From Python bivittatus (lineage: Eukaryota): DNA of 21,965 bases. The DNA lies in the NCBI RefSeq assembly GCF_000186305.1, contig NW_006536941.1:4676-26640 (forward strand), written 5' to 3'. Below, piece after piece: positions 2,561 through 21,965 of this stretch. Position 1 is the first letter of the stretch; every line of letters starts with the position of its first letter. The notes below the pieces were generated by a model. The model worked only from the letters and a program-made list of their open reading frames with translations, was not told the DNA's origin and made no database searches. Position numbers and translations under genes: made by a program.

Positions 2561-2656
2561 CCTTTTTTCAATTGCCACGAAGCTTGTAAATTGGGTCACA
2601 ATGGAGTTTTTCAGGCTGAGCTCAATGATGAAGGACTTCAGTTGTTGTTTCTTCAT
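2561..2656 (-). CDS. PARP4: PARP4 exon P
   Basis: Acceptor ccttaactatttag|ATG, donor AAAAGG|gtatgtatg. Encodes MKKQQLKSFIIELSLKNSIVTQFTSFVAIEKR, phase 0 at both ends. It lies in the minus ORF 2456..2656. Further exons are expected below 2561, but I could not place them. Confidence 0.85.
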
Positions 2657-2715
2657 CTAAATAGTTAAGGCCCAGGCAAATGTTAAAGAGTCTACTTCCC
2701 TGCAGGGATAAGCAA

Positions 2716-2800
2716 CCTGATATCTACCAGATGTTTTGGACTACAGATCTCATAAGCTCAGACACCATAGCCAATGGCCAACATTTATAGGAGTTCCAGG
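2716..2800. repeat. fragment of a common squamate palindromic repeat (tggactacaactcccat... family)
   Basis: ccagatgttttggactacagatctcataagctcagacaccatagccaatggccaacatttataggagttccagg resembles the abundant ccagatgttttggactacaactcccatcagcc...ccaatggtc... element. Recalled from memory, not verified. Confidence 0.35.
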
Positions 2801-3315
2801 AATTATTCTCCAAAAAATCTAAAGGGCACCCTGTTACTGCTGTATTTATAATTGTTACCAGTGATATACATCTGGCCCAGTGGAGTATCTCACCTGGACT
2901 TCTACCATGGCAATAACTTCTACACAATGCTTTATTCCCTGAACTGGCAGATCTTCAACATTTTATGTATAGTTTATAATATACATTTTCAAGCATTTTT
3001 TTTAAATTACCTCATAATGTCATTACTATTTTATATATACCATGTATTTTGTTCATTAAAACATAATATTATAAAATAAAACATAGGATCACATTCTTAA
3101 TATGTTATTAAGATACCATAAAATGTTAGGACCCACAAAAAGAAAACTGTCATTATCAGTTATAACATTAGGAAGGAAGTGGAAGTATAAGTTAAGGCTG
3201 GATTATTACATAAGGTTTTGGTTTAGCACAACATGTGAATCCTACAATTAAGAGCTACCATTAAATGCACAAAGCAGTTATTTCATGGATGTTTCAGACT
3301 AGAGAGTAAACTGAG

Positions 3316-3503
3316 AGCCAATGTTGTGTAGTAGTTAAAGTATTGGACTAGGAATGGGGACATGCATGTCCTAATCCACCCTCAGCCATGGAAACTCACT
3401 GGGTGGCCTTGGGCCATCAGTTTCTTTCAGCCCTACCTACAAATTGCTGTTGATAAAAATAGGAGAAAGTAGAAATATGTACACTGCCTTAAGTTCCTCT
3501 ACA
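3316..3503 (+). mobile_element. tRNA-derived SINE (saurian/squamate type)
   Basis: tRNA-like head gtgtagtagttaaagtattggactagg. Body ccaccctcagccatggaaactcactgggtggccttgggcca...cagccctacctac...gttgataaaaataggaga...atgtacactgccttaagttcct. This matches the widespread reptile/bird SINE with the ccatggaaactcactgggtgaccttgggcca core. Confidence 0.8.
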
Positions 3504-4149
3504 AAAGACATGATATAATCCAAATAAATCTAGACTTCATTTGCCATCTAGAGCACTCACTTTATTGTATCTAAAATTTACAGTTCTTGGAGCAGCTGGC
3601 CATCCTATCAGCAATGTTCTGTGGTGACAGAAAGGGAATATCAAGTGCATTTCCCCCCAATCCACACAATTACCCTTCTGCCACCTTGTGAATGTCTTCA
3701 ACTTGCTGTTGAGTATATGCCTTGAGTAAGGAAAGTTAAATAGTACTCAAAAACCAACATTACAGTCAGCAATCTGCATCTCTTCTTTCCTCTTGCCATA
3801 CTTGTTTCCAGAGTGAAGAAACTGGCCACTGTATAGAGGAGTTACCCCTCAGAGTGACTGGGAAGAACAAGAGATGCTGGCACAATAGCACCCCTCTGCA
3901 GACAGGAAGAGGAAGTGTTCTGAAGAGCCAGAAAATGGAACCAACTCTCCCACTGTACAGCTCCAGAGAAAACTCTGTAACTGTCTTCCCAGTATTTTCT
4001 CTGGAGGAGCAGCTAAACCAGACATTAAAACAGTTCAGCTAGAAAATATGTCCATAAATCTCATAGCATGTTAGGACACAGGGATACCGAGCCAGTCTCA
4101 GATCATCACAGCCACTGTGTGGGGAAGGAGCCTCAGGTAGCACTGTGCA

Positions 4150-4300
4150 TCTTGTTCCAAACTGATTCTATTTATTAATTTAGCAAATTTATATAGCCAC
4201 CCATCTCACAATATGTGACTCTGGGCAGCTTACAAACATAATAACAATTAAAATCATATGACAATTCAGGAAACAAACATAAATAAAAATAAAAACATGA
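4150..4300 (+). repeat. possible SINE/LINE 3'-tail fragment
   Basis: atttatatagccacccatctcacaatatgtgactctgggcagcttacaaacataataacaattaaaa resembles the ggactcagggcggcttacaa...ataaaa tail shared by reptile SINE families. Recalled from memory, not checked. Confidence 0.35.
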
Positions 4301-4589
4301 AAAACCCCAAGCTTGCAGGAGAACAACAATCATTTAACTTAATTCAATAAGAGAATCATAATCCTATAGCAATTATTTAATCTGAAACTACCCTAAGAAC
4401 ATAAGAAAAACCCAAAGCTTGTCTAGTCCAGCATCCAGTTTTTTTCAATGAGCAACCAAATGTCTCTGAGAAGGTTAGATAAACAGAAACTGGATGCAAT
4501 CTGTATCATGCAATTTTGTAGACAGCAGTCATAACTAAAATGGTTAATAAATACAGGGTTACACGTTTTTTATTTTCTTGGCTACATAC

Positions 4590-4670
4590 CTCATGTTCTG
4601 TTTCATTCTCATCAAGCATTCCTTGTTCATAATCTCTGATAAAGGCTCTTGCTGCAAGTTTGTGGAGCAT
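4590..4670 (-). CDS. PARP4: PARP4 exon O
   Basis: Acceptor ctcttgtccctggtacag|ATG, donor CATGAG|gtatgtagc. Encodes MLHKLAARAFIRDYEQGMLDENETEHE, phase 0 at both ends. Too short for the ORF track; found by hand translation. Confidence 0.85.
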
Positions 4671-5110
4671 CTGTACCAGGGACAAGAGAAGACATCCTGA
4701 TCAGTAATATTAAAACAATTATTCAATAGTTTGGCCTGATCAAAAGTGTATTGAGCAGCTTCCCTCTGAGTGTAAACAGTGTATTGGAAAAGAATTATTC
4801 TCCCTATATCATCAGAGAAAAAAAGAAACTCACCTCAGCTGATCATGAATGGACATCTCTACTTCTAATATTAAAAATCTGTCTTTTGACATTATACACT
4901 GGTTGGCCTAAGGACCCAACATTTCAGGAAGATAGATTTTATTAAATAACTACAACCATTCAACAATTTAATGGGTTAGGATGGGAAATGGAGGAGAAGC
5001 TTTGCAATGCCAGGTCACAGTTTCCTAAAATTAGGCAGGGCTTTGGATTCTAAGACAAAAAGCACTTCAGAATGCTCAGAGACACAAATGTAACCCCTGT
5101 TTGCAACTCC

Positions 5111-6110
5111 TTAAAATAAACATGATTCTACTAACAAAAGATGCAGCTGCTTTAAGGAAGGGCAGACCAAGGCTTCATTTGTGCCGAGAAATGTCTCTGT
5201 ATTCAAAACATAGTCTGCCTCTGGACTGGCAACAGCTGTGACACAATTGGTTCTGTCACTGCCTTCCTCATTTCTTGGCCACATACAGTTTCCAAAGCTT
5301 TTATCCCCAGTTAGGGTCAAAGACAGGGGGAGAATGACAGGCATAATGGTCTTCATAGATCCTATGTAGCTATTTCTCCAGTTGCATCTAACCATGACAT
5401 TGCCTTCATCTCATCCTCAATCCATCTGTGAGACAGCCTGAAATTGTCCTTCGCCGAAAGATGGCTAGATCATGGCTAGACGCACTCTCAGGGGAGCACA
5501 GGTTTAGTGTACCTTCCTTCCTGTAGACAGTAAGGAAGATGACCAGCATATCTCCATCAAGGTCATCTTTCTTACTCTTTAAACTTCCCAAGTCTACTGA
5601 AGAGCTCTTCAGTAGGCTTGCAGAGTTGGAAAGTAGATTCACCCTCTCCACACAAAGGCTCCTGTAAGCACCTGGGGTCATAGCAGCCAGACTCAATATC
5701 TGGCTTGGAACTAGAATTTCCTTAAGAATAAAAGGATTACCGAGGAAAAAGTCCCTACTTCTAAATAATGCTGTTGGATGGAAATAATCTAGCTGTTGGA
5801 ACAAAAATCATTCAACTGAGAGCAGCCCAGTGCTGGAGCCATATCTGATCTCAGCCAATCTTCTTTGTTTATATTTCCAGATGACCAAACTCTGTTTATA
5901 ATTTACAGCTTCAGCTGACTTATTCCTCTTAACCCAATCTTTTACTATCATCTTTGGCTCTAAGTTCATCCCACATCTGCTTTTTCCTGCTTGTGCTGTA
6001 AGACAGGAGATGGAGAATTCTTCAATAGGTAGAGCAACATTCACAATGAGTTGGTGTTCATTGTGATGCATAAAGTACCTTATGCATGCTGCCTTGCAAG
6101 GATGTCCCAC
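5111..6110 (-). pseudogene. decayed ~1 kb coding relic (three consecutive ORFs in three frames), unclassified
   Basis: Minus ORFs 5808..6110 (100 aa), 5406..5804 (132 aa) and 5111..5395 (94 aa) abut end to end, each shifted by one frame. About 330 codons have only two stops, in DNA where stops should occur every ~20 codons. No motif I can assign. Confidence 0.45.
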
Positions 6111-6277
6111 TATGTCCAGTGGGGTTTACCCTTTTGAATGTGGTTTTATGACTGCATTCTTAACTAGACAAGTATCCATAAAAAGAAGGTAGGCTCCTAA
6201 GTGGTCCACTTTCAAATATTGATTATGTCAAGAACATGAAGCAGGTTTATAGTTTGAGCAATCAATGCCTAACTCAC

Positions 6278-6358
6278 AGTTCCCGTGGTCTTCTGCAGTT
6301 CAGTTGTAGATACCAGCGCACGCAATTCCTGCCTATCTACTAGTGCATTTAAAATGGC
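6278..6358 (-). CDS. PARP4: PARP4 exon N
   Basis: Acceptor tttttttctctttcag|GCC, donor GGAACT|gtgagtta. Encodes AILNALVDRQELRALVSTTELQKTTGT, phase 0 at both ends. Confidence 0.85.
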
Positions 6359-7539
6359 CTGAAAGAGAAAAAAACAGAATATTCTTCTGAATTTAATTGT
6401 TAAAAAAGTTAAGAATGGTGCAATAGCATGCTTATCTACTACTTCAGCTTTCATGTAAAGTCAATTGCTTCTATTTGCAGTATGAGCTCCATGCAACATT
6501 TATTAAAATTATTTTTAGATATCTCTTCAAGATTACAGACATGGGGATGCTAATACAGACGAATCTGCCAGTAGAATGGGACATTTGTTGTTGACTTAAT
6601 TAAGACAATACACCAACAATTTTTTTTTAAAAAACGTAATTCTAGTGCAATAGAATGGCTGCTTAATTTACCAAGGTTTGACATTGTCAGGCAAGCTAGA
6701 ATATGAAACATGGTTAGTATGGAATTTCACACCATGCTTTGTATTAACTATGACTTGATCTAATGTCTGGTTTTAAAAACCACATTATATATACTGCTGT
6801 CTATATCCTTGTAGAGTAAACTAGAGAACAAAAAATGAAAGCAGCTGAAATGTGGAAGTTCAAAGCTATGTTAAACCTGATACATTCTGAAGCTCAAACC
6901 ATGGACTGGCATGAGTATGAATTACATGGTTATGGTGGCAAGTGGAAGAGTTTATTCACGTTGAGCATTCCACTAGGAAAGATATTTCCCAGTTTTCCAT
7001 TGCTTCAACCAAGCTGAGACAGCACTAAGAACCCAACAAATATTATAATAATTCTTTCTTACTGAATACCTGGAAATCACCTGTTCATAGTATGTTATGC
7101 CATTGCAATTTTCTTCAAATGTCATACACTCAGATTTATGTCACCTAACCACTTCTTCAATGGCTTCAGCCTCATCACTGTTACATACATCAGGTTGCCA
7201 GCTGAGAGGCATAGCTTATTCTTATTCCAGTTTATCCCCATTGTGCCATGATAACTTTTATCCATTGGTTCAGGGAGTATAAAGCACAAAATCCAGTATG
7301 AAATATAGTAAGTCCTGGTTTACTTAACCATGGATTACTGAGGATGCCATAAATAGATGGTTCAAAATATGAATCAAACCCAAGTATGTCCCCTCGATGC
7401 TTAACATCCACTCCACTTAACAGTGGAAATCTATTGGCCTTGTCCATATCCTCAATGGCATATCTTTAGATAAAGATGGGCTTCTTGATTTGGAATAGGA
7501 ACTATGCCAGCCTCATCTTTGTTTTTGGGCAAAGTTGGA

Positions 7540-8095
7540 AATTGCAGAGATCCAAAAGATTTCTGAGAAATGTTTTAACTGCAATTATATGGTTTACTAT
7601 GCAATCAACCTAATTTGTTCACAAAATTTTAAGAAGTGTGAATTCCTTATTCTCCTCCGCTCTGCATTGTTGAGACCACAGCTGGAGTACTGGCATATTT
7701 TAAGAAAGATATTGACAGGTTAGAACAGGTTCAGAGGAAGGCTACAAATGCAATATATAAATTTGAGGATATGTCCTATGAGGACAGGCTGAAGGAACTT
7801 AGGATGTTGGGTCTAAAGAAAAGAAGAATGAGGGGAGTATAAAAGGGTGCCATAGAGGAGATGATCAGGAACAATTTTCTGTTGCCACAGAAACTAGGAC
7901 CAGAAATAACAGGTATAAGTTGCAGCTACCTAGATGTTTTTTAAATATAAAGTAAAACTTCCTGATGGTAAGATCTGTACAATAGTGGACAGCTACCTCT
8001 TGAGGATGGTTTAAATTGGTTTTCTTCCATATTGCAGAAGATTGGACTAGATGATCCTTATGGCCCCTTCCAACTCATCATTCTATGGGAGTGGA
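7540..8095 (+). mobile_element. CR1-like LINE 3' end (degenerate ORF2 C-terminus plus 3' UTR hairpin)
   Basis: Frameshifted translation gives ...LLRSALLRPQLEYW..., KKDIDRLEQVQRKATNAIYKFEDMSYEDRLKELRMLGLKKRRMRG and KGC...FSVATETRTRNNRYKLQLPR. These match the conserved CR1 ORF2 tail (LVRPHLEYC...KKDVELLERVQRRATK...SYEERLRELGLFSLEKRRLRGD...). It ends in ttggactagatgatccttatggccccttccaactcatcattctatg, the conserved CR1 3' hairpin and ATTCTRTG-like tail. Confidence 0.8.
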
Positions 8096-8338
8096 GGTCC
8101 AGAAAGTGTTATATGTATAACCTTTGTAACTTTCCTGTTTTCCTATCTCTGTTTCTATTGCTTTTCTTAGAAAACCCTTTCTTAGAAAAACCTCCCATCT
8201 CATCAAGGTGATTCTAGGCAGCGTACAAAAATTAAAACCAAAAGAAAGCAATAACGAATGTATAAAACAACATACAAATACCATAATATATGACATGCCT
8301 GGGGATGAAAAAAATATTTCTACTACTATCACGGAACC

Positions 8339-8428
8339 ATAACTAAACTAAACTAAACTAAACTAAACTAAACTAAACTAAACTAAACTAAACTAAACTA
8401 AACTAAACTAAACTAAACTAAACCAAAC
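8339..8428. repeat. (AAACT)n microsatellite, ~17 perfect units
   Basis: aactaaactaaacta... runs perfectly from 8341 to 8422. Confidence 0.95.
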
Positions 8429-8439
8429 CAGTGGGGCTT

Positions 8440-8950
8440 GCTTAACCTCCCAGCCCAAATGCCTATAGGAACATCCAGGTTTTTAATGCTGTTTGAAAAG
8501 CCAACAGTTTGGGGTCATCTGAATCTCTAGGGGGACATCATTCCATAGGGCAAGTGTGGCAACAGAGATGGCATGACTCCTAGACCTCACAAGGTGACAA
8601 TAACAGATGAGGTCTGCAGGATGCCAACATGCCATTTCTGGTGGGGCAAGCAGAGACAAACTATCACACAGATGGAAGGAAACACAAAAATTAAATGCAG
8701 AATGGCTTTCTATTTCCATTCTATGAGTTATGAGTTATTCTGGAAGACCTCCCCACCCTGGCTATCTCTGGAGAAACCACGTACAGCATCCCAAAGGGCA
8801 TGTCTACTTGAGTATTGATCAACCCTTTAAATTCCCATATAGTTACTATCAAAGATCCAAGAGAGAGAGAGTCAGCAGGATATACTTACTATCTGATTGG
8901 TTCTTTTTCTTGAAAAGTCCATATGGATTTAAATTTATCATATGAATTAT
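8440..8950 (-). repeat. interspersed repeat carrying an ALWN..LPLEI..FK-type ORF relic
   Basis: Minus-strand translation ...VATLALWNDVPLEIQMTPNCWLFKQH*KPGCSYRHLGW. This resembles an ORF tail (ALWNSLP.EIR.APSL..FKK.LKT.LF..AF) that recurs in vertebrate repeat-derived gene predictions. Overlapping ORFs on both strands at 8483-8945. Confidence 0.4.
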
Positions 8951-9030
8951 TCATTCATATGAAAGAGATGCTGGCAGTATATGAGTTTTGAAACTGAGGA
9001 GAGAAGAAGCTTCTTTGGACAGCTTATTAC

Positions 9031-9201
9031 CTGTGTGCAATTGAGGATAAATCCATAGACTAGAAGACGCTCGTGGTTAAATAGAGACTGTATCTGAGCA
9101 GGAGCATATGTAAGTTCAGGTTTTTCTATATCATAATTCTGCCATTCAATGGAAATAGAACTGCACCGTGGAGAAAACATTCTAGTTGCCTGGCTTTCCA
9201 T
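9031..9201 (-). CDS. PARP4: PARP4 exon M: end of vWA domain and post-vWA region
   Basis: Acceptor ttttttgtttccatgtctgtgcag|ATG, donor CACAG|gtaataagc. Encodes MESQATRMFSPRCSSISIEWQNYDIEKPELTYAPAQIQSLFNHERLLVYGFILNCTQ. It lies in the minus ORF 8947..9213. Confidence 0.85.
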
Positions 9202-10019
9202 CTGCACAGACATGGAAACAAAAAATTAGTATTTGTTCCTTTTGTTAAATTATTTTACATAGAGTAATAAAAACACAACAGAATAGAACAAGTGTGAAGA
9301 AATGCTATTTTATAGGGTATTTCATCAAGTGGTTTAACCACATCCATCTTTTTTTAAGTGGATTAGACAAAAGTCTTGAACTTGGGAAACTGAATTGTAA
9401 TAAATGCAAAGGACTAAAATTATTTTTTCCAAATCTAACAGATCAGTTACTACTAATGCTCAGGCATACTGCTCTTTCGTACTGCTAATATCAAATATGA
9501 TTAACACATTTGTAAGAACTTAATTTATATTTATATTTATACACACACACACATAGTAAGCCACTAACAATAGGGCATTTCATACAAGGATCCTGTACCA
9601 GTTTGAATCCAACTCTATAGTTCTGTGTTCTCAGACCATCTCATCTATGCTTAGCAGCTATCTACCCAATTCATCTGTGATGCAACAAAAACTGAAAAAC
9701 AGTGATCTCTTGGTATTCAGTGGCAAAGCACCACAAGCTGGAAATGGGGCTTCCTTGCCTCAGCTAACCTGTGAGTTCCTGAGCTTGAGTAGATTTACCA
9801 TTTGTGTTGAAAGATCTTTAAAGGGGGAAGCCCCCCATCAAAGTAACAGCTCTATTTGTTTTGTTCCTATCTTGCTTCCTTGCTTTCTTAACATATTAAC
9901 ATTTTTTTTCTTTTCCTACCCGCCCCCCCACCACACACAGCATCTTGCTCCTGATGCCTGTCTGCAAGCATTGTTTAGAGGGTAACTCCTCCTCTCGTCC
10001 CACTGCAGCAAATACAACA

Positions 10020-10345
10020 CGATTACAGCTACAGGTAATCCTTGCTTAACGACTGCCTGTTTAGTGACCGTTCAAAATGACAACAGTGTTGAAAAAGTAA
10101 CTTTATGACTGGTCCTTGCACTTACAACCGTTACAATGTCCCTGTGGTCACATGATAGAGATTTGGTTGCTTCGCAACTGTGGTCATTTACCACTGTTGC
10201 GGTGTTCCACAGTCACATGATTGCCATTTGTGCGCTTCACAGCCAGCTTCTGACAAACAGACTCAACAGAAAAGTCACAGTCACTGAGGTCTCACTTAGT
10301 GACCATGTCACTTAGTGATGGATTTTCCAGTCCCAACTGTGGTCA
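10020..10345. repeat. interspersed repeat with internal short direct and inverted subrepeats
   Basis: Reiterated TGGTCA/TGACCA-containing motifs: tggtcacatgat, ctgtggtcatttaccactgttgcg, cacagtcacatgattgcc, cttagtgaccatgtcacttagtgatgg, ctgtggtcattaggtgac. The composition differs from the flanks. Confidence 0.4.
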
Positions 10346-10818
10346 TTAGGTGACTACTACCTGTATTGGGAAAAAACCCTAGTAGCAAAAAATGCCATCC
10401 TTTCTCCATCATTGCTAGCAAGAGGTTTTTATTCATCTGCACCCTTTTTTCTGGTAGCTTCAGATAGTGCACATGGGGTCTCCTCTCACCTTATACCCAC
10501 AACAACTACGTGAGAGAGGCTGGGCTAAACTGCAATGGAGGAATAATGTCTTAATGCTTGCAGTTGCTTTTTTTAATAAGAAATAGTAATTTTCTTTTCA
10601 AACAACCATACAAATACACATAACAATGTAGAAATGTAGAATTAGGGTTGCAATTTATTTTATTCCCTTTTTGCACGGAGAGGGATGATACAGTATATTC
10701 TTTGTTGCTTCCCAGAGCTATAATATTCTAGATGGGGCATTGCTGACTGGCTGGAAGAAGAAGAACACTTGGCTTATGATGTTTGCCTGTTCTCTGCCTT
10801 TCAAGAACAGCAGACAAT

Positions 10819-10864
10819 AAAAGGATAGTAGGTTACCTTCCAAAAAGGATAGTAGGTTGCCTTC
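10819..10864. repeat. tandem duplication of a 23-bp unit
   Basis: aaaaggatagtaggttaccttcc / aaaaaggatagtaggttgccttc. Confidence 0.8.
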
Positions 10865-11007
10865 AGATTGGTTTGTGAGGGGCTAGGGAAGGGGAACACT
10901 GTGGTATGGAAGCACCCTGGAAAGTAACTAATAAATATATTAAGTAATAAAACCTCTTCTCCAGCTGATTTCTGTGCCTATAAAAAATAATACTAAAATA
11001 TACTTGC

Positions 11008-11107
11008 CTTTCTCTCCCAGTTATATTTTGATTTCACATCAAAATATTCAAAAGCTCCAGCTCCATATTGCGCTAAAGACCTCAGCATGTGACGATTTGC
11101 TGTAGGA
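11008..11107 (-). CDS. PARP4: PARP4 exon L: vWA domain; ends in a GC-AG intron
   Basis: Acceptor aaatcatcttag|T. Encodes (G)PTANRHMLRSLAQYGAGAFEYFDVKSKYNWERK. The donor is AAG|gcaagtat, an exact match to the GC-AG consensus AG|GCAAGT. No GT donor gives the phase 0 that exon M needs. Confidence 0.8.
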
Positions 11108-11640
11108 CTAAGATGATTTGTAAAGATTTACAATTTATAAAAATCTGCAATAGAGAGTCAACCTGATCAAGGAAAAATTAATGTTATGTACAACATATGC
11201 TCTGCATAGTTACATTAGTCCACACATCTAATTTACTAGTGTAAGTTGAGCATCCAAGGAGTGGGGAGGGGAAGGCCAGAAGAGGTGACAAGGAGTAACC
11301 TGTAATGGTATGTGGGAATGACCTTGGGAGACAGGAGGGCAAGCCACAGACTAACAACTGGCATGTAAAAGGCTTCTCGGCCCCTCAGAAGGAGAGGTGA
11401 TGTGGGAAATGTTTCAGAAGGGATCCTCCCTTGTTTTCTGGAGAGTAAAAGGAGAGGAGGGGAGAAATACTTTCAGTCTTGCAAGATTCTGTTAATGTAA
11501 CCTTACAATAAAGATAGAGCTAGTACTCCTGGTTGTGCTTCTTGTCTGGACTACCTCACAGGTCTAAACTCACCAATTTGTTTTATGGTAAAAGGGTGTT
11601 TTTGCCTACCTGTTAGATCCCTATTGTTGCCCTATAGCAG

Positions 11641-11751
11641 TGTTTCTCAACCTCAGCAACTTTAAGATGTGTGAACTTCAATTCCCAGAATTCTGGGAAT
11701 TGGGGCTGGCTGGGGAATTCTGGAAGTTAAAGTTGCTGAGGTTGAGATACA
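11641..11751. repeat. hairpin-forming inverted-repeat element (MITE/SINE-like)
   Basis: tctcaacctcagcaactttaa at 11645-11665 is the exact reverse complement of ttaaagttgctgaggttgaga at 11727-11747. An inner palindrome cccagaattctggg/ggaattctgg is also present. Confidence 0.6.
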
Positions 11752-11824
11752 TTGCTCTATAGTTTGCCAAAACTATGTTTTGCAATTCTATCTGGATGTA
11801 AGTTTTCACTGAATGCGCACTTAC

Positions 11825-12012
11825 CCCACTGCACATGTGAATATTCTAGTGTGCGTTGCATTTTTCTTCACAGTCTGCAGGGTCAAGCCTTCATTCTGAA
11901 TATGTCCATCAGATATAAGAATAACGTTGCGCTTGCTTTCAGCAGGGTACAGCAAACTCAGATAGTGCAATGCCTTCCATAAGTGTGAGTCTCCCATTGT
12001 AGCTGTAGCTGA
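11825..12012 (-). CDS. PARP4: PARP4 exon K: vWA domain
   Basis: Acceptor ttaatttttag|TCA, donor GTGGG|gtaagtgcg. Encodes SATATMGDSHLWKALHYLSLLYPAESKRNVILISDGHIQNEGLTLQTVKKNATHTRIFTCAV(G). The vWA signature LISDG and the ...CAVG strand are present. Confidence 0.85.
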
Positions 12013-12203
12013 CTAAAAATTAAAAATAAAAGCTAAATTAAGGCCATCCTCTCCCAATGGTCAAATCAAAAATCCCATACTGTCTTGGAATTTTAGGATT
12101 GTAATTTTATGGAACGATAATTCTATCAAGAAGTTTTCAGGCTAAGGATACTGTTTTAGACAACTGGTATTCAAAGGTATCCTGTCTCTAATAGTACACT
12201 TAC

Positions 12204-12274
12204 TGTGATAAACTCTTTCAAAGCTGTGGGATCCATTGGAGAACCATCAAGATTGGGAAAAAACTCTACAAAAT
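12204..12274 (-). CDS. PARP4: PARP4 exon J: vWA domain
   Basis: Acceptor ttatttttgcccctctatag|AT, donor ATCACA|gtaagtg. Encodes (N)FVEFFPNLDGSPMDPTALKEFIT. The phase fits exon I (A+AT=N) and exon K. Confidence 0.75.
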
Positions 12275-12552
12275 CTATAGAGGGGCAAAAATAAAATTTT
12301 ATTAATACATAAAAGATATATCTTTATTAGAAATCAGTTATAATAATTACAGCTGCAAAATTCAGAGCACAATCCTATACATGTGAACTCAGAAGTAAGT
12401 TCCATTGATAACATGAAGCTTAGTCCTCAGTAACTGCAGGAAGATCAAATGAAGACTCAAAAAATCTTATGCATGGAAACTGGACAGACCTCTAAAGAAT
12501 ATACTAAAGAGAAACATAATAAAGATGACATGGTTCCACAAAAAAGCCTTAC

Positions 12553-12748
12553 TTGTCCCAAATTTGATAACACTTATTTTTCTTGTCAAATGACATGAGT
12601 TTAGAGCGTGTAATGCAATCTCCTTGGCTTGCTGGATTGCTGAACCTGCCATGGAATTGGAGCAATCTAGGCAGATAACAGCTTCACCATGGAGGCTTAA
12701 AAGATCAAATGGGTCTTCAAACTCTGGTTGAAATACAAGCATGCAGGC
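12553..12748 (-). CDS. PARP4: PARP4 exon I: start of the vWA domain, with the metal-ion-dependent adhesion site (MIDAS)
   Basis: Acceptor cctttcttttag|GCC with an in-frame stop directly upstream. Donor ACAA|gtaaggc (phase 1 end). Encodes ACMLVFQPEFEDPFDLLSLHGEAVICLDCSNSMAGSAIQQAKEIALHALNSCHLTRKISVIKFGT. The D-x-S-x-S MIDAS motif DCSNS lies at 12653-12667. Confidence 0.85.
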
Positions 12749-13548
12749 CTAAAAGAAAGGAAATGGGAAAAAATCAACCAAGAGCAGGTCATCTTAAATG
12801 AGAGGCAGATGTCAGCCAAGACAGAAGACACACCACAGGTCACAAAACCTGGTATTTGCTGTGGTTCAGAGACAGACAAGTGACCTGTCAGGATTCTGTG
12901 TTTGAATGTCATCAATTCCAACATTCTGAACATTTTTCTGAATTAAGGAAGCACTAAGTAGCCTAAATAGACAGTACAAGGAGGGCTGGCACCTTAATGG
13001 TATTAGTGGATGCTTTTCCACTTTCTGTGGTATACTAGTTACCTAGGAATTCTTGCAGGTTCCTAGAATTTCTTGGAGATGGCATTGTATCCAAGCTGAA
13101 CTTATAGATCTTTTTAATCAGTAAAAACCAGTACTATATCCCAGTACTGACACTAGCTTTAAAGGACAGATTTTCTTCAGGGACACAGCAGGCAAAGAAA
13201 GGACTTATTCCTCTTTGACCCCACTAATTATCATTCTCTCACACACACTCCTTTCAAACACACACACACAGACACATTTTTAAAATGCAAAGACATACTT
13301 AATATCAGGACATTGGGACACTAGGAGTACAATCAAAACCTCATTAGGACAACTCTTGCACTGTCGCCATAGATCGATTGACTTAGATGCTATTGAATGG
13401 CTTCCTATAGTGCAAAATGGAAAACGGATTTTGCTATTGTTCAAACAGCCTATCATTCCATCCATGATATTCAAGATGAGACCATATTTAGCAACTTTTC
13501 AAATTTTTCCTTCCAGAGTGTTCCGCGAGATAATAGTTAATCCTTTAT

Positions 13549-14082
13549 GTGGTTTTGCTGTTTCCAGACGCTATTCCAACACCAACTGCAACAGAAGCTA
13601 ACAAGCCTTCCCCCCCTCACAAGACCTTGAAAAAGCAAGGCAGTGGGAGTCAATTTTCTCCTCAACCAGACAGTATGACCAATCCAGCTGAAGCAGACCT
13701 TACCTGTGCCTTTGGCTCCCTGCCCAGGAAGGAACAAGATAACACTATTTTTAAACTAGAAAATCTTAAGAAAACCTTACTGGACTCCATTGCTATTGCA
13801 GAACCCCTCATTGATTTTGTGTCTCCAACTACTGACCCTAATTACTATCAGCTGGTGGATATAGATCTGGAGGAAAATCGATACCCAAATAACAACTGCT
13901 CTAGCCTTTATGAGATGAATGGGGTCTTCCCTGGAGAGCACCAGTCTATGCAAATAACTGAGGAGGCAGTCTTCCCAAGACCACAGACAGATGCTGACCA
14001 ACGCCTAGTGGATACTAGATCTCCTCCACATGATGGGTTGTCTCCACATTCTGCGGATTCCCCTCACCATATTCCATAAAAA
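13549..14082 (+). CDS. intact 176-codon ORF of the LINE fragment (ORF1-like, unclassified)
   Basis: No stop across 534 nt in AT-rich DNA. It begins at GTG with a TAG stop directly upstream; the first ATG is at codon 44. Pro/Ser-rich ends. No similarity to L1 ORF1p that I can recognise. Confidence 0.4.
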
Positions 14083-14139
14083 TCAGACATGAACACATCT
14101 GACTCCCCTGATCCTTCATCTGTTGAGAAATGACTGAAT

Positions 14140-14412
14140 ATGTCTCACCATGACCCTCCCTCACCTAGTGTTTCTACCCCACCCCTTACAGGTGTTGTTA
14201 AACATTCAGCAATTCACATATTATTGTGGAATCTTGCTGGATGGAAAAACAAACTACATGAGTGTTCTGATTTTCTGTCTAACCATGATTTGATTGCAGT
14301 CCAAGAGACCTGGTTAACTGCTGATGATGAGCAGATCTCAATCCCTGGCTTTAAATCCTGGTTCACTCCAGCTTGGAAATTAAAAGGAGGTTTGGCCATT
14401 TTGATTACTTAA
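14140..14412 (+). pseudogene. truncated LINE ORF2 (AP-endonuclease N-terminus only)
   Basis: Motifs LLWNLAGW, DLIAVQETWL and GGLAILI, then a stop. No reverse-transcriptase motifs downstream in any frame. Confidence 0.6.
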
Positions 14413-15528
14413 TATCATGTCTAGTTTGGTCCTAAAAGTAGATATTATGTATCACAGTATTTAAATTAAAAAAATAAAAAAATCACCTCACTATCTTCAT
14501 CTGGATGTTTTTCTACCCACATTCTGGGCAAATATACATCACCAATCAGGATTTCCATTGCAAAGCCACTAGTGTCCAAGAAACTGCCTTCAGTAGTACA
14601 AACCACTGCTTTGCAGTCTGTTTTCTAAATGACGGGAATATGCAAGGAAAAAAAAATGCTGTAAGAAAACTTGAATTATTTCAGCCTGATCTTTTTCAGA
14701 CATATCTGTTCAGCTACAAGCACTACTAAAAGGGTGGGGGAATAAAATCTTGCAAAATAGGATTTTACTACCCTGAAATCTTGTCCTCCATTCTCTCTTC
14801 GTACTTCTCCACCCACCTGCTGACCAAAAGGGGATTATTTCCCTTTAGATTTTCATTTCAATTTTTTAAAAATTCTACAAACTCTAGAGCAGGGTTTTTC
14901 AAATTGTGTTTTGTTGATGAATTTGATGGGGTTCCATGAGAAACTAAGGGCAAGAAAAAAAATAAGTTCACTCTAACACAGCCAATTTTCTATCACTAGA
15001 GCTCTGCATCTTGATCAAAAGTTCTGGGAAGTTTCTGAATAACAGGTTCTACAGCCTGAAGAAGTTTGAAAACCTCTACTCTAGAGTGCCCCACAAGCCT
15101 GTTGATACCTTTCTCTTCTGAAAAGGTGATAATAATTTAGCAACAACAGTCACAGTCTAACCTTGGAAATAAAATAAATTATTCTGGCAAGATTGCCTGC
15201 TCTAAAATACTGTGCAGGGGTCCCACGCAAGAGTTTATTTTGATGAAATTGTGCAAAGCCTGATTTAGAAACCTTCATCGTTTTTCAAGCTATTGATATT
15301 TTAATGTTGCATTAAGCGCTTTGCTTACCTTTATTTTAAGCTGATGTGTCCAACTACTAATGTTATTAATTTTGAAGGGCATTTCAATGGACATTTCTAA
15401 ACTGAACTCTCTGTCATAAGATAAAGAGAAGCCACATACAGGTTAGGACTCGGCTGAGATATAATACAAACTTAGATAAGTAGGCAGATATCAGGGTTTT
15501 GTTTTTTTTAAAGAATCCATTACTGGAC

Positions 15529-15696
15529 CCAGATATAAAGGTGAGCAAGCCACATCATGTGTTCTTTAAGCTTTTGAGGGAAGCTATGGGCTATTAGACT
15601 AGAAAGTAGAAACATTACAATAGCAAACCACTTCCATAGCACACCAAGGAAGTTGCATGGATGGTAAAGGACTTTAGGGAAGTTACAGTTCACATG
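15529..15696 (-). CDS. PARP4: PARP4 exon F/G: linker just before the vWA domain (boundaries uncertain)
   Basis: Long minus-strand open frame HVNCNFPKVLYHPCNFLGVLWKWFAIVMFLLSSLIAHSFPQKLKEHMMWLAHLYIW. Acceptor ctgcttaattatttacctgag|CAT (phase 0), or aacttccctaaag|TC at 15671 (phase 1). Only a weak donor, TGG|gtccag, gives the phase 0 needed by the vWA exon. Loose similarity to the PARP4 linker (KRTDCKA against KHVNCNF; SLHIGLSAAYLPRMW against SLIAHSFPQKLKEHMMW). Confidence 0.4.
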
Positions 15697-15837
15697 CTCA
15701 GGTAAATAATTAAGCAGATTTAAGATATTCCATTCAGAGAAACAGATTTTGGGTAGCATTGAAAGTCAACTATTTGATATTTATTATTATACTTTCAGCA
15801 GTAGGGTGTCATTTGGATTTTTTTCCTCAAGAAAAAA

Positions 15838-15858
15838 ATATCTGTCTGTCTGTCTGTC
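15838..15858. repeat. (TCTG)n microsatellite
   Basis: atctgtctgtctgtctgtcc. Confidence 0.9.
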
Positions 15859-15912
15859 CATCAAAGCCTTCTCAGGCCTATAAATCATATAAGGAATAAA
15901 TCACTTTCTTAC

Positions 15913-15995
15913 ACAGAGGACATTTTTCATAACTGTGAATGCTTCTTGCTTGAACTAATGAAGACATGATTAACTTCCTTGTCTCCACAATGTCT
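15913..15995 (-). CDS. PARP4: PARP4 exon E: VIT–vWA linker (boundaries uncertain)
   Basis: Acceptor ctccagtttaag|A. Open frame (R)DIVETRKLIMSSLVQARSIHSYEKCPL. Donor CTGT|gtaagaaag (strong, phase 1), or alternatively AAGAAA|gtgatt at 15905 (phase 0). It sits where the DTVEK...SFSLTMSIEMPY linker segment of PARP4 is expected. The frame fits exon D only if D uses its alternative donor. Confidence 0.45.
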
Positions 15996-16931
15996 CTTAA
16001 ACTGGAGAATTTTCTGGGAACACTAGGAGTTTGAGACCAAGGTGCAGCTAGAATTTGTACAAGGCAGCGTACACTGTATTTTGTTTGCCCCAAATATTAT
16101 TAGGTTATTTTGGGTATGTTGTTATATAATAATCATCACAGCACCAGTCCAAGAGGTTTACAACTCTGTTCATAAGACTTACAATTGTGCAGGAATCATG
16201 CAGGGGAGCATCTATATTACTGACAGCTATTCGTGATCCTTACAGGCAATATTACTAAGTGCCAATAAACTAGAACATACTATCTTTATGTATAACTAGA
16301 AGGTTTTCCCAAAATTATTTAGACAGCTGCTGGTATGGAACAAGATACTGAAATAGTTGGATCCAGCAGAGATTATTTTACCTGAGTTTTAATCTGTAAA
16401 TAGGAAAAGTGTGGCAGTTTACCAACTTACCTTTTTGTTTCTGTTTGTCTAATGCAAATTTTCCTTACCGAGTCCTAGTCAAAAGCAAAGATAAAACATT
16501 AAGTGATGAGACGTAATACTCTGGAAGATAACACTCATCTTGGCAAGGCAACATTAGTAAAACTTATTCCTTCTTTTATTGATCGCTTTGGATTTTTCAG
16601 TACAAGAGAATTACCAGAAGGGTTTTATTCAACCAATGCTTAATAAAGTGAACATTAATTTAGGACTCTTCAAAACCACATTCTACCTGTTAAGCACATT
16701 AAGTCCATAACAAAGCGAACTGTTATAAAGATAATTTGCAGTTATAAATGCAAACTATTTTGCTAAGCCCAGTATAGCTCTGACCATATACTCTTGATAC
16801 TTTATAGCAGTCAGCCATGTTTCCTTCAGCTGTCTTCAAAGAAGAATACAGGAGTTCCTGTGGTGTCTCATTAAACCTGAAGCTGTTGGTAATATTATTA
16901 ATAAGCAATTTCTTAGTAAAAGCACACTGAC

Positions 16932-17096
16932 CTGCGTGTTTTCATTTAGTGCTTTGTCTTGTTGCCAAGGAGCCACAGCAGCTGGCAAGTGAAAGCAAAG
17001 GTTTCCTTTCTCATAACTGAGCTCTGTGATGTAGGAGATCTTGATGAGCACCTTTGTTGAAGGCGGCAAGTTTCCAACAGAAACAGTAAAAATGTC
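16932..17096 (-). CDS. PARP4: PARP4 exon D: VIT domain C-terminal part
   Basis: Acceptor attacttcatag|GAC. Encodes DIFTVSVGNLPPSTKVLIKISYITELSYEKGNLCFHLPAAVAPWQQDKALNENTQ. Two donors are possible. CAG|gtcagt at 16932 ends in phase 0. CAGGTCAG|gtgtgc at 16927 ends in phase 2. Only the second keeps the frame with the best next exon. Confidence 0.8.
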
Positions 17097-18233
17097 CTAT
17101 GAAGTAATATTTAAATTGTTTATAAAATTATGGTTTTACAAACAACAGTATATACAGTTTTAACCTAAAAAAAAAGATTACCAGGAATGACTTATGATAT
17201 ATCTTATTTGAGGCCTATGTAGATGTTCAAACTCATGTAGAGAATCAGGGCTGTGGCTTCTAGCCCTTCTTGAGAAACCTACTCTATTATAGTCCTCATC
17301 TACCATTTGAATGTTGGCTCTAGTGCTATAAATATGAAATGTATGAAGATGTCCATATAATTGAACATGTATGTTGTAATTCTGATGGCAATCCACATTT
17401 GCTTCCAACATATTCAATGTCATTGAATAGATGTCCTTACACAGAGAACTCTACACATACTCAATGTTTACATCATCAATACATTCTTAGAGAACAGACA
17501 ATCAACATATGGCAAAGGCACATTAACCACATGGCAGACAATGACCAGATACATTGTAGTGCATTTTGGGCTAGTTAAGAACCACAGAGAACAAAGCATA
17601 AAGGAATTGACCTCTGTGAAGATGTTTTCCTATGTGATGTGTAAAAAACTGGGTTTCGAAATAAAGTGCCTGTGGCAGTGCCAAATGCTTCTTAAATTCG
17701 GATATCGCAAAGCTTATTCTGAGCATGCAAGCTTATTCTTCTAGGAATGGACGTTGAGCAAGTAGACTTCCCAGTAGTATGCAGAGTTTCTTATTCAAGG
17801 AAACTGTAGAGAGCCTGAGGAAGGTTTCTCCTGATCTGCTAAGCTGGAAACAGGACAAAGTTTCTACCCATTCCAAAAGCCAGTGCTGCATTGGATCTCA
17901 TTCTGCTTATCCTTTGGCATAAGCAAAAAGGCAGGAGGAAGAGTTTTTCTTACCCAACTAGGATACAGAAGAGATAAAAGCTGTCTAGATAACTGTTTAC
18001 TGGGTGGAGGCAGAATGTATACAGTTGTCCTATGATGCCTCTTCCTCCAATCTCTTTGTCTCAATAAGCAGAATTTGGTTCAGGGGCACCAGGGGATTAG
18101 ACATATATCTAGAAAATGTATGTATGCATATTACTATTTTCAGTTTGAAGACTAGTGTAGTTTCAGAAAATGAGTAGAGTCCAATGTGTGTTGTTGTCAT
18201 AAATTGTACAATAAATCACTATATATCACCTAC

Positions 18234-18320
18234 AGGTGCATCCTGATCCATCAGATAAGCTCCATCACCTCGACTGATGGCCTCTCTGTATTCTTGATGT
18301 GCCTTTTCCTTTTCTTTAAC
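18234..18320 (-). CDS. PARP4: PARP4 exon C: VIT domain
   Basis: Acceptor caatgttaatag|GTT, donor GCACCT|gtaggtgat, phase 0 at both ends. Encodes VKEKEKAHQEYREAISRGDGAYLMDQDAP, which continues the VIT pattern (KEKEEA..Y..A...G.GAYL). Confidence 0.8.
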
Positions 18321-18750
18321 CTATTAACATTGAATATAATATCTATTTATATTTTTAAATTTTATTTATATATCACATATATAAATAAAAGATAGCTGCC
18401 CATCTCACACAAAGCAACTATAGGCGTATAAATATATAAAAATAAATAAATAACACTGAATATAATATACAATACTTATCCTGGTTGGAAAGAAAGTAAA
18501 AATAAAGTAACATACATCACCATGCCACACTCAGCAATAAGTCTGGGGAAGCAAGATAAGGGAAGTTAGTGGGATAACGTAGATCAGCTTATTAAGTGGT
18601 TACTTGCATGTCATAATAAGTTGCTGTTTAGAGGATGATTTCATTCTAATTTATTGGAAACAAAGACACAATAAACTCTTTTAAATCTAATTTAGGTAAT
18701 TCTATCAGAAATGATGTGCTGCTTAACTCCTAGGTAGAAGAAGGAGACAA

Positions 18751-18806
18751 CCTCAGAATAAAGTCTAGAGCCCCACAACTCAGAATAAAGTCGAGTCCCA
18801 CAACTC
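18751..18806. repeat. tandem duplication of a 28-bp unit
   Basis: cctcagaataaagtctagagccccacaa / ctcagaataaagtcgagtcccacaactc. Confidence 0.8.
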
Positions 18807-19499
18807 ATGTAGCAGCATCTTTCTTATTCTTTTAAACACTTTATAGTCAGGACGCAGATGCTCTTGCCCACTTGCTCAGATGCCCACTGAATTACTTTTA
18901 TTTTAAAAAATTATTATTCTCTTTTAAAATACAGTGGTACTTATTCTCATATAAGAAATATCACTTATTATAAAGCTGGAAGCTCTGCCATTACTATATC
19001 TAGGGTCCAAAATTATCTTGTTTCACCACTGCTGTATTTCCTCTTTAAATACTAGGCTGTTCTTTGCAGGAGTACAGTTCAAGCTATCAAAAATCAATAC
19101 ATCCTAGGAGATCTTTTCCTCTCATTGCTCTTTCAACTAATATCAGGGCCTGGTGGAGTTGGACCATTACCTGGACCACGAGGATGGTCAAAGGACCACC
19201 CAAGCCAATACTCTCTATGGCAATTTATCTGCTGCATCTCTAGCAATAGGGAGACCAATATAGGAGACTATATATGAAAGACTGCTGAAGAGAATCAAGC
19301 ATCAACAAAACCGGTCAATTGCATGCTTTCACCATGGAAAAAACAGATTGCTGGCTTGGAGGATGTTATCACAGTTCTCTTGACAGCCTAGAAAAGCCTT
19401 CCCCAACAGGCTGGGAGCAAAGGGGGTTGTATCCAACAAATCCAAGTTGGGAAATATTGGCCTAGAATCATCCTTCTTTCTGCCACTGCATCAGCTTAC

Positions 19500-19631
19500 C
19501 TCTCCTATTATATGCTTTCCTTTAATGAACGCTTCAAATCCACATACAGCAGCTGTGTCATCCAAAGGAAAGACATATTTGGCCTCAATGGGATCCCTTG
19601 TTTCATTTTCATAGGTCTGAAACACCACAAC
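19500..19631 (-). CDS. PARP4: PARP4 exon B: VIT domain core
   Basis: Acceptor ttatatttcag|GTT, donor GGAGAG|gtaagctg. Encodes VVVFQTYENETRDPIEAKYVFPLDDTAAVCGFEAFIKGKHIIGE, the canonical VIT motif (EA.Y.FPL...AV..F.A.I.GK.I.G) seen in ITIH, VWA5A and PARP4. Confidence 0.85.
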
Positions 19632-19941
19632 CTGAAATATAATGCAATATATTTTATGCATTAGTTTGGACAAACACAGTTGTTTTCACCAGAAAGATTT
19701 TTATGGGTGGTGCTTCCATCCTAAGATTAACATTTTCAACATGACTGAACACAGTCCAAAGAAAGAGAATACAGAAAAATAGTAAGTCAACTAGTTGTGG
19801 TAGAAATGTATATCTCAGAATATGGCTGGATATTATACGAAGGCTAATTCCCTGAATTTTCTTCTCCATTCCTGCTCTTGGCTCAAAAGATAACAGTTCT
19901 GATTTTACACTAAATTAAAAACATGGTAGTAAAGGATGCTT

Positions 19942-20006
19942 GAAGAATTAAAAATACAATTTTTGAAGAATTAAAAATACATTTTTGATAAATTAAAAAT
20001 ACCATT
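19942..20006. repeat. 22-bp minisatellite, 3 units
   Basis: gaagaattaaaaatacaattttt / gaagaattaaaaatacattttt / gataaattaaaaataccatt. Confidence 0.85.
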
Positions 20007-20030
20007 AATCAGGGATGTGTTTACAGTTGT

Positions 20031-20395
20031 TTTTTAATAATATTTTTATTAAAGTTTAAAAATGCAAAGATAAAAAACTAATACAAACTAAGAAAAATAT
20101 AAAAAGCAAAAAGAAAGAATGAAAAGGGAAAAGGGAAAAGGAAAAAAAAGGGAGGAGGAAAAAGAAAAAAACATACACACATACACACACACATATATAC
20201 ACACACATCAGCATATGTTTCTTTATATATTCTTTTTTCTTTATATATTTTTCTTTTTCCTCCTCCCCCTTTTTTTCTTCTTTTCCCTTTGCACTTTTTA
20301 TTCTTTCTTTTTTTCTTTTTATATTTCTCTTAGTTTTAGTTTTTTATCTCTGTATTTTAAAACTTTAATAAAAAATATTATTAAAAAAGGGATAT
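20031..20395. repeat. large inverted repeat (~145 bp arms) flanking a CA/TA microsatellite; the purine-rich arm mirrors the pyrimidine-rich arm
   Basis: The reverse complement of 20031-20171 aligns at about 85-90% with 20241-20395 (shared blocks ctttttcctcctccc and tcttagtttt...ttttttatct...ttttaaactttaataaaaaatattatt). The spacer 20172-20240 is acatacacacatacacacacacatatatacacacaca. Confidence 0.8.
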
Positions 20396-20459
20396 GCTTA
20401 CACTTATTCAACAAAATAGTCAGCATTCCTAGGAAAAACAAAAAACAAAAAGAATTTTA

Positions 20460-20584
20460 CCTCTGCTACAAAGTCTATTATTCTTCCTTTGATTCGAATA
20501 TCTTTAAGAGGAATTGGATTTCCAGCTCTGTCCATGAGACCAGCAGAAATATCATTCAATAGATCACGGCTTGGTATTGAATAA
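20460..20584 (-). CDS. PARP4: PARP4 exon A': linker and start of VIT domain
   Basis: Acceptor ctctcatttag|AT, donor GCAGAG|gtaaaattc. Encodes (D)YSIPSRDLLNDISAGLMDRAGNPIPLKDIRIKGRIIDFVAE. The phase fits exon A (G+AT=D) and exon B. IPLKDIRIKGRIIDFVAE matches the first strand of a VIT domain. Confidence 0.7.
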
Positions 20585-21297
20585 TCTAAATGAGAGAAGT
20601 CAAAGGTAAGCCCAAACTGTAATCAGAGTCTAAGATTAGTGGTCCCTTTACACACCCTGCTCCCTGCCGTTCCTGGACATTTCATCTCTTAGTTTTTCTT
20701 ACCTTGACAGCAGCCTCCTACAACTGTACTTTCTCCTCCCCTAGTACCCCACCTCCCAATTCCCTTTGCCCTCCTTTCTCCCAAGGACTTCATTGTTTAA
20801 ATGTGTGTGTGATGCTAAATGTGGGTGCTTTCTGGACTGTGGGGTGTGAATCTTGGGGTGCTCTGAGGGTAGCAACATGGAGATTGGAAGCCACAAATAG
20901 CCTACAGACAGCTCACTGCTGCTCTAGTGGGAAAACTCCCTCTGTAAATAGGAAAAAAAAAACATATTCAGAGAAAAGCAAATTTAGAGGCTTCCTATAT
21001 TCCAATTAATTCTACGTAACTACTTTCCCTATTTTAAAAAATGTAGAAGAAATAAGGTTTCTTCTACAGGTTTTAGAGATGGGCTCAGAGAATATACTCA
21101 TGATTTTATTTGTGAGGGGGACAAGAGTTAAAATGGATATTTATCATTCAAAGGTCATATCTGGCATATTTCTAGAGTACCAAGCTAGTGTAGATGTATT
21201 TTTATCAAAAGTCTCATAAATAAAAAAATCAGTTTCAGAAAATACCAAGGAAACAGACTCATTGTTGCTGTTTGTAATTTCAAATATTATGTCTCAC

Positions 21298-21454
21298 CTT
21301 TAGGCTGGTCATGATGCTCAAGAGAAAGCATCTGGTCTTCTAATTCAGTCTGAATTATTGGCTGGAATTCTTTTACTTTGTCATTAACACAAGAAAATTG
21401 AACCACATATTTGATCTTCATCTGACTGGTTCTGTACACTACAAATTCGTCATC
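21298..21454 (-). CDS. PARP4: PARP4 exon A: C-terminal end of the PARP catalytic domain
   Basis: Minus-strand acceptor ccaataag|GAT, donor AAAG|gtgagac. Encodes DDEFVVYRTSQMKIKYVVQFSCVNDKVKEFQPIIQTELEDQMLSLEHHDQPK plus 1 nt (phase 1 end). The DEFVVYRTSQMKIKYVVQF segment matches the conserved C-terminal strand of PARP catalytic domains (PARP1 [21 protein letters not shown]). Confidence 0.75.
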
Positions 21455-21840
21455 CTTATTGGAGGAAAGGAAACAGAACATATATTTTAAGAACCTCACT
21501 AGAGCAAAAAGATAGATACATGAGCTGATCCTAAAGGCTTATTCACAACTGCAAAAAAGTCAAGTTAGTTAGGGAAAAGTTCAGAATATTGAAATATTAC
21601 ACCAACTTAGCAAACCGTTGCTTTTCTTATGAATAGGACTTTGGTGAACTGCTTCCAAACAAGCAGTTAATTGAAAGTCCACTGGCCACACAGGACCTTC
21701 AACAAGGCCCATCCCTTCCCCAAGGCTTATTCTCTCATAGGGGTCTGGTTAGAAATAGCACGTGTTAGAGACAGAGGTTAATTTATAATTGTATAATTTA
21801 TAACTGCTGTAAAGAAGATTGGAAGCCATTTGTTTATATC

Positions 21841-21965
21841 TTTCTTTGTATCTTTTTCTTTTTTCTATGTTTCTTCTACCTTTTTTCTTTCTGCACTTTT
21901 AGCTTTTTCTTTTTGTTCTCCTTTCTCTTTCTTTATTTTTTGTTCTGTTTTAGTTTGTATTAGTT
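21841..21965. repeat. third, partial copy of the pyrimidine-rich arm of the 20031-20395 inverted repeat (cut off by the window end)
   Basis: ctttctgcacttttagctttttctttttgttctcctttctctttctttattttttgttctgttttagtttgtattagtt matches the right arm and the reverse complement of the left arm (gcacttttt..., cttagtttgtattagtt). Confidence 0.5.

Follow-up and report, generated by a model that had tools for sequence, protein, structure and literature searches.

The 21,965-nucleotide (nt) stretch of contig NW_006536941.1 analyzed here (referred to as a whole as the window) is almost certainly nuclear squamate DNA, most likely from a snake, and carries the central third of PARP4, the gene for vault PARP, transcribed from the minus strand. 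The gene and its BRCT-ART-VIT-vWA-MINT architecture are already known, and the locus is an orthologue of the expected structure. Seventeen minus-strand exons (table 1), running from 21454 down to 995, join to give a 2031-nt reading frame of 677 codons that is uninterrupted by stops. The 16 introns between them are 191-2672 nt in size; acceptors are AG throughout, donors are GT in 16 of 17 cases and GC in one, and the splice phases are consistent at every junction of the model. In a search of Protein Data Bank (PDB) sequences, the spliced peptide (residues 1-655 of the first model described below) matched residues 545-1214 of human PARP4 with 849 bits and an E-value of 1.5e-254. A preliminary description of this DNA had placed the middle of PARP4 here, antisense to the given strand, and both this match and the collinear minus-strand exons bear it out. 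The range that it had assigned to the gene begins at the first base of the exon encoding the PARP end (21454) and finishes at the last base of exon E15 (2561), and the exon order of PARP end, VIT, linker, and vWA is as it had claimed.

The window is AT-rich (34-43% GC) and devoid of long open reading frames (ORFs), with short open frames on both strands, an appearance typical of vertebrate genomic DNA. Peptides that look conserved form a descending series among the minus-strand stop-to-stop frames, and crudely joining them was already enough for Pfam to recognize a full-length VIT domain along with a vWA domain. Of 5.8 billion proteins searched, 322 matched at E <= 1e-10, and the best 120 of these were read for names and domains; these are PARP4 wherever their source names them, and most combine the PARP domain PF00644 with VIT and VWA. 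As the preliminary description had suggested for a check, PARP4 orthologues were compared with the window by tblastn, and all five used gave collinear minus-strand matches from ~21466 down to ~962. Exon junctions were settled from frame-compatible GT/GC-AG pairs, after which the DNA was read against the orthologues. The initial junction scoring had chosen wrong pairs at junctions 1-2, 5-6, 8-9, 11-12, 13-14, and 15-16, and these were overruled by the orthologue comparison. The first model obtained in this way comprised 16 exons and 661 codons; the final one has 17 exons following the addition of a micro-exon, E5b.

Comparison with the genomic PARP4 loci of the gecko Gekko kuhli and the bird Limosa lapponica supports the model independently. 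The exon peptides map full length onto both loci, which also reproduce the splice phases, and the exon lengths found in the window land on AG/.../GT boundaries for the 9 exons compared in Gekko and the 13 compared in Limosa, the sole exception being a GC after gecko E10. Nucleotide matches between the window and these loci (blastn; 10 for the gecko and 13 for the bird) all fall within predicted exons, which account for only 9.2% of the window. Codon differences are concentrated at third positions, and the ratio of nonsynonymous to synonymous substitution rates (dN/dS) is 0.21 for the gecko comparison, over 421 ungapped codons, and 0.18 for the bird comparison, over 545. Exon structure, blastn matches, and dN/dS in these two species together indicate an intact gene under purifying selection rather than a decaying copy.

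The coding sequence in the window opens with the tail of the catalytic domain, continues through the entire ITIH-like module, and enters the poorly conserved region that precedes MINT. Exon E1 contributes the 21 C-terminal residues of the catalytic (PARP) domain, which match the C-terminal strand of PARP4. Searched alone against the PDB, it hit PARP4 only (human residues 545-585, E 1.3e-9), including the last 29 residues of the crystallised catalytic constructs 8swy and 8sx1, and in the Varanus protein the last residue of the Pfam PARP domain, 349, is the counterpart of model residue 21. Model residue 3, a Glu encoded at 21448-21446, aligns with human residue 547, and E547 is the Glu of the H438/Y477/E547 triad in the human PARP4 crystal structure (PMC10711553). 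The codons for the other two triad residues, His and Tyr, lie upstream of the window.

The VIT domain starts 58 residues beyond the end of the PARP domain and is complete, covering positions 1-111 of 111 of PF08487 (E 9.2e-39) over model residues 79-189 and exons E2-E5, in agreement with the four exons previously assigned to it. The vWA domain is recognized by PF13768 (VWA_3, E 4e-13) and PF00092 (E 9e-11), with envelopes spanning residues 333-481 and exons E8-E11, and its fold probably continues into E12. Five exons had been attributed to this domain; four of them lie within the Pfam envelope and the fifth, E12, fits as the probable continuation of the fold. The domain retains the DCSNS motif (DxSxS) of a metal-ion-dependent adhesion site (MIDAS), reported as intact in the preliminary description, together with the Asp of an SDG motif. 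The Ser/Thr position downstream of DxSxS, which we take to be the metal-binding Thr position of vWA domains, is Ser here versus Thr (GNT) in birds and mammals. Ser likewise occupies this position in five of the five squamate orthologues in which the motif was found (Varanus, Pseudonaja, Laticauda, Podarcis, and Gekko). Judged from these sequences, the replacement of Thr by Ser is a conservative, lineage-wide change.

Several points weigh against reading the window as part of a functional PARP4 orthologue. The best protein identity is just 80%, and one intron has a noncanonical GC donor that is not common to the bird. With only part of the gene in view, an inactivating lesion may also lie elsewhere. 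The partial view and the GC donor would also suit an inactive PARP4 duplicate or pseudogene, an explanation that we consider very unlikely. All 17 exons are open and all splice sites usable, dN/dS is ~0.2 against both gecko and bird, and the catalytic Glu has been kept, as have the DxSxS motif and the SDG Asp. The presence of introns means that this is not a processed copy, and GC donors are a known minority class of introns.

A second explanation, that the window holds another VIT-vWA gene such as an ITIH heavy chain or VWA5A and that the PARP-like E1 is a chance match, draws on the VIT-vWA module that these genes have in common and on the weak detection of ITIH proteins in the search. The preliminary description had named a better match to such proteins as grounds for abandoning PARP4, but the scores run strongly the other way, at 37 bits for ITIH4 and 34 bits for ITIH1 versus 849 bits for PARP4. 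Moreover, E1 matches PARP4 only, and an exon for the PARP C-terminus lies in frame ahead of VIT, unlike the arrangement in ITIH and VWA5A. Neither of these names occurs among the best 120 of the 322 protein matches, VWA5A itself not having been compared directly. We therefore regard this explanation as exceedingly improbable. Short open frames are generally abundant in the window, and AT-rich DNA could in principle provide exon-like pieces by chance. The strength of the matches to human PARP4 and to the VIT model, the collinear order of the exons, and the conservation of their splice sites in two other species reduce the likelihood of such an accident to practically nil. A functional PARP4 orthologue is thus the reading that we retain.

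The exon count of the orthologue hinges on a segment of the linker between VIT and vWA. Alignment of the 661-codon model to human PARP4 left a single 16-residue gap, opposite the human segment DTVEKICIKEIGTKQS. This segment is present in gecko, bird, and rodent proteins, and the Varanus, Podarcis, and Pseudonaja models show "QV..." in its place, equivalent to read-through of the donor into the intron. A splice-constrained scan of intron 5 for the missing linker segment, from phase 0 to phase 0, gave nothing above shuffled controls. Frame-free local alignment recovered DSVRKICIRQTETKR at 16474-16430 with a score of 47 versus a shuffled maximum of 33. The resulting micro-exon, E5b, is flanked by an acceptor and a donor and fills the gap against human PARP4, with 15 residues in the window versus 16 in the human protein. 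Gecko and bird each have an orthologous micro-exon in the corresponding position, with identical entry and exit phases, 47 nt long there versus 44 nt here.

The acceptor of E6 is an ambiguous tandem AGAGAG, and was set at 15410 because the micro-exon leaves in phase 2. Skipping of E5b combined with use of an acceptor 4 nt downstream, at 15406, would also be in frame (NENTQ/FSLEM) and would produce two linker isoforms differing by 16 residues, a scheme suggested by the arrangement of the splice sites that we think distinctly unlikely. The gecko acceptor does not permit the skipping frame and therefore such an isoform pair would be lineage-specific.

The one departure from GT donors follows E11, where intron 11 begins at 11006-11007 on the minus strand (AAG/GCAAGT) and constitutes a GC-AG intron. 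This donor was accepted because a nearby GT breaks the frame and the orthologues do not have extra residues there. Limosa has a GT donor at the E11 junction, and the gecko has a GC donor of its own one junction earlier, after E10 (~33446 of the gecko locus). In the preliminary description, 15 exons had been counted between 2561 and 21454, with phases agreeing across 12 of them. The actual number in this range is 16, the micro-exon having been overlooked, and the phases all agree once both the micro-exon and the GC donor of intron 11 are taken into account; the incomplete agreement arose from these two features.

Table 1. Exons of the PARP4 model in the window, in order of transcription. Slashes mark exon boundaries.
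Exon	Coordinates	Strand	Length (nt)	Splicing	Content
E1	21298..21454	-	157	acceptor AATAAG/GAT, donor AAG/GTGAGA	residues 1-53; PARP (ART) end and linker
E2	20461..20585	-	125	phase 1 entry; acceptor TTTAG/AT, donor GAG/GTAAAA	residues 53-94; VIT begins at 20508; length and splice sites identical in gecko and bird
E3	19500..19631	-	132		VIT; peptide 91% identical to gecko exon
E4	18234..18320	-	87		VIT
E5	16932..17096	-	165		Pfam VIT envelope stops at 17031; exon runs on through WQQDKALNENTQ
E5b	16431..16474	-	44	phase 0 in, phase 2 out; acceptor GACTAG/GAC, donor AAAAG/GTAAGT	micro-exon, DSVRKICIRQTETK plus 2 nt
E6	15329..15410	-	82	phase 2 entry; acceptor GACAG/A	VIT-vWA linker; 82 nt in gecko and bird too
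E7	14487..14624	-	138		linker (KTDCKAV...LPRMWVEKHP)
E8	12553..12748	-	196		vWA start; MIDAS DCSNS at 12667-12653
E9	12204..12274	-	71	phase 1 entry; acceptor TATAG/AT, donor ACA/GTAAGT	vWA; covered by a blastn match to the gecko locus
E10	11825..12012	-	188		vWA; Ser at 11988-11986, SDG Asp at 11910-11908
E11	11008..11107	-	100	phase 2 entry; donor AAG/GCAAGT	vWA
E12	9031..9201	-	171		probable end of vWA fold and downstream region
E13	6278..6358	-	81		AILNALVDRQELRALVSTTELQKTTGT
E14	4590..4670	-	81		MLHKLAARAFIRDYEQGMLDENETEHE
E15	2561..2656	-	96	donor AGG/GTATGT	MKKQQLKSFIIELSLKNSIVTQFTSFVAIEKR
E16	995..1111	-	117	acceptor GATTAG/GAG, donor ATG/GTATGT	EADEDRSADTLNVLEPVAKEDVDILPYMEYSTELDDTSM

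The N-terminal exons and the C-terminal region that binds the major vault protein had been placed outside the window or below 2561. One further exon, E16, lies below 2561 and still inside the window. This exon aligns with human residues 1188-1214 and with the Micrurus, Varanus, and Limosa proteins. Eight orthologues, some reaching further toward the C-terminus, revealed no further exons in the flanks of the model (1-994 and 21455-21965). In the Micrurus protein the exon after E16 corresponds to ILHSCSMPAYYYED..., and its counterpart here presumably lies past the end of the window. The Micrurus protein also carries, at residues ~225-348, an E16-type segment (EADEDQSGDTLDHLEPVAIHDVDILPYIDYST...) and the segment following it twice in tandem, versus one copy in the window. 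This could be a real exon duplication or an artefact of transcript assembly.

Among the matches listed, the closest proteins are those of elapid snakes at 77-80% identity, and none of the PARP4 proteins listed exceeds 80% identity or ~1150 residues. Identity to the window peptide declines from Micrurus (80%) through Pseudonaja (77-79%), Varanus (74-75%), and Podarcis (71-72%) to Gekko (69%), these squamate models being the nearest sequences (69-80%), and stands at ~57-59% for mammalian orthologues. The automated models of Varanus, Pseudonaja, and Podarcis are without the linker micro-exon and read through into the intron there. Those of Pseudonaja and Podarcis also omit E13 and read through the E15 donor, and that of Pseudonaja omits E9 as well. 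Read-through of two introns in the Pseudonaja model gives peptides (RVCMFIFKPSF and FGTSKTSLWN) that are near-matches to translated window introns: EKRVCMFIFKPSF is identical over 13 residues, and FGTSKTSLWNYV has the counterpart FGTSKAFLWNHV in the window. The Podarcis read-through has no such match. This pattern points to a snake, or a close relative of snakes, that the protein database lacks as the probable source of the DNA. These gaps in the squamate models look like annotation errors and not biological differences.

Outside the exons, the window contains no RNA genes detectable with Rfam at gathering thresholds, and no long intronic ORF has a Pfam match reaching the family cut-off. Intron 7 includes, on the plus strand at 13549-14412, a frame of ~290 codons with two stops, the end of which weakly matches the N-terminus of an Exo_endo_phos endonuclease of the LINE (long interspersed nuclear element) type (E 2e-4, short of the Pfam cut-off). 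The frame has the appearance of a retroelement fragment in decay, oriented antisense to PARP4, with its 5' part kept and ending ~75 nt from E7. On the minus strand of intron 13 (5114-6125), open frames of 105 and 133 codons, in one frame with a single stop between them, are followed by 99 codons in another frame, all within the kilobase of the window that has the highest GC content (0.43). Pfam has no match for 6125-5114, and a search of 1.84 billion representative proteins gave none for 6125-5409 at E <= 0.001; these frames are probably noncoding.

Intron 12 contains a near-perfect (AACTA)n microsatellite at 8341-8428 (17.6 copies, 98% matches). A low-complexity block in intron 2 (20030-20387) has purine-rich (AAAG/GGAA type) and pyrimidine-rich arms that form an imperfect inverted repeat, 71-80% complementary. 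The block also includes a short run resembling (AC)n (20171-20208), and a stretch similar to its purine-rich arm closes the window at 21833-21965.

Human PARP4, or vault PARP, which we take to be UniProt Q9UKK3, serves as a reference for comparison (PDB 9bw6, 9bw7, 11jf, 8swy, and 8sx1). The window peptide is collinear with it over residues 545-1214, in the order ART end, VIT, linker, vWA, and post-vWA region, and has the catalytic Glu, DxSxS, and the Asp of SDG in common with it. The two differ in the residue that lies downstream of DxSxS, Thr in the human protein and Ser in the window. Like PARP4, the ITIH heavy chains possess a VIT-vWA (ITIH-like) module, and a weak alignment spans it. They score only 34-37 bits, have no upstream PARP exon, and form a separate gene family (PMC10711553).

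PARP4 is an ADP-ribosyltransferase housed in the vault particle and is considered mono-ADP-ribosylating despite its H-Y-E triad; its VIT-vWA region, termed "ITIH-like", is believed to take part in binding other macromolecules, and its C-terminal MINT domain, also termed MVP-ID, docks it to the major vault protein (PMC10711553, PMC12280208). By analogy, E1 would supply the last strand of the ADP-ribosyltransferase fold together with the catalytic Glu of the triad, and the ITIH-like module would serve as a protein-interaction region whose vWA domain bears a predicted MIDAS. Exons for the N-terminal part of the protein (BRCT, WGR-like, and helical domains) and for most of the catalytic domain are predicted to lie outside the window, upstream of 21454, and those for the MINT domain, which would dock the enzyme inside the vault cage, beyond its low end. 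These functional roles are taken from the literature on the human protein, whereas the splicing model and the domain content are shown here.

The significance of the locus is limited mainly to correct annotation. A GC-AG intron can mislead phase checks made by eye, and a linker micro-exon of 44-47 nt, conserved from birds to squamates, has nevertheless been missed by the automated models of several squamates.

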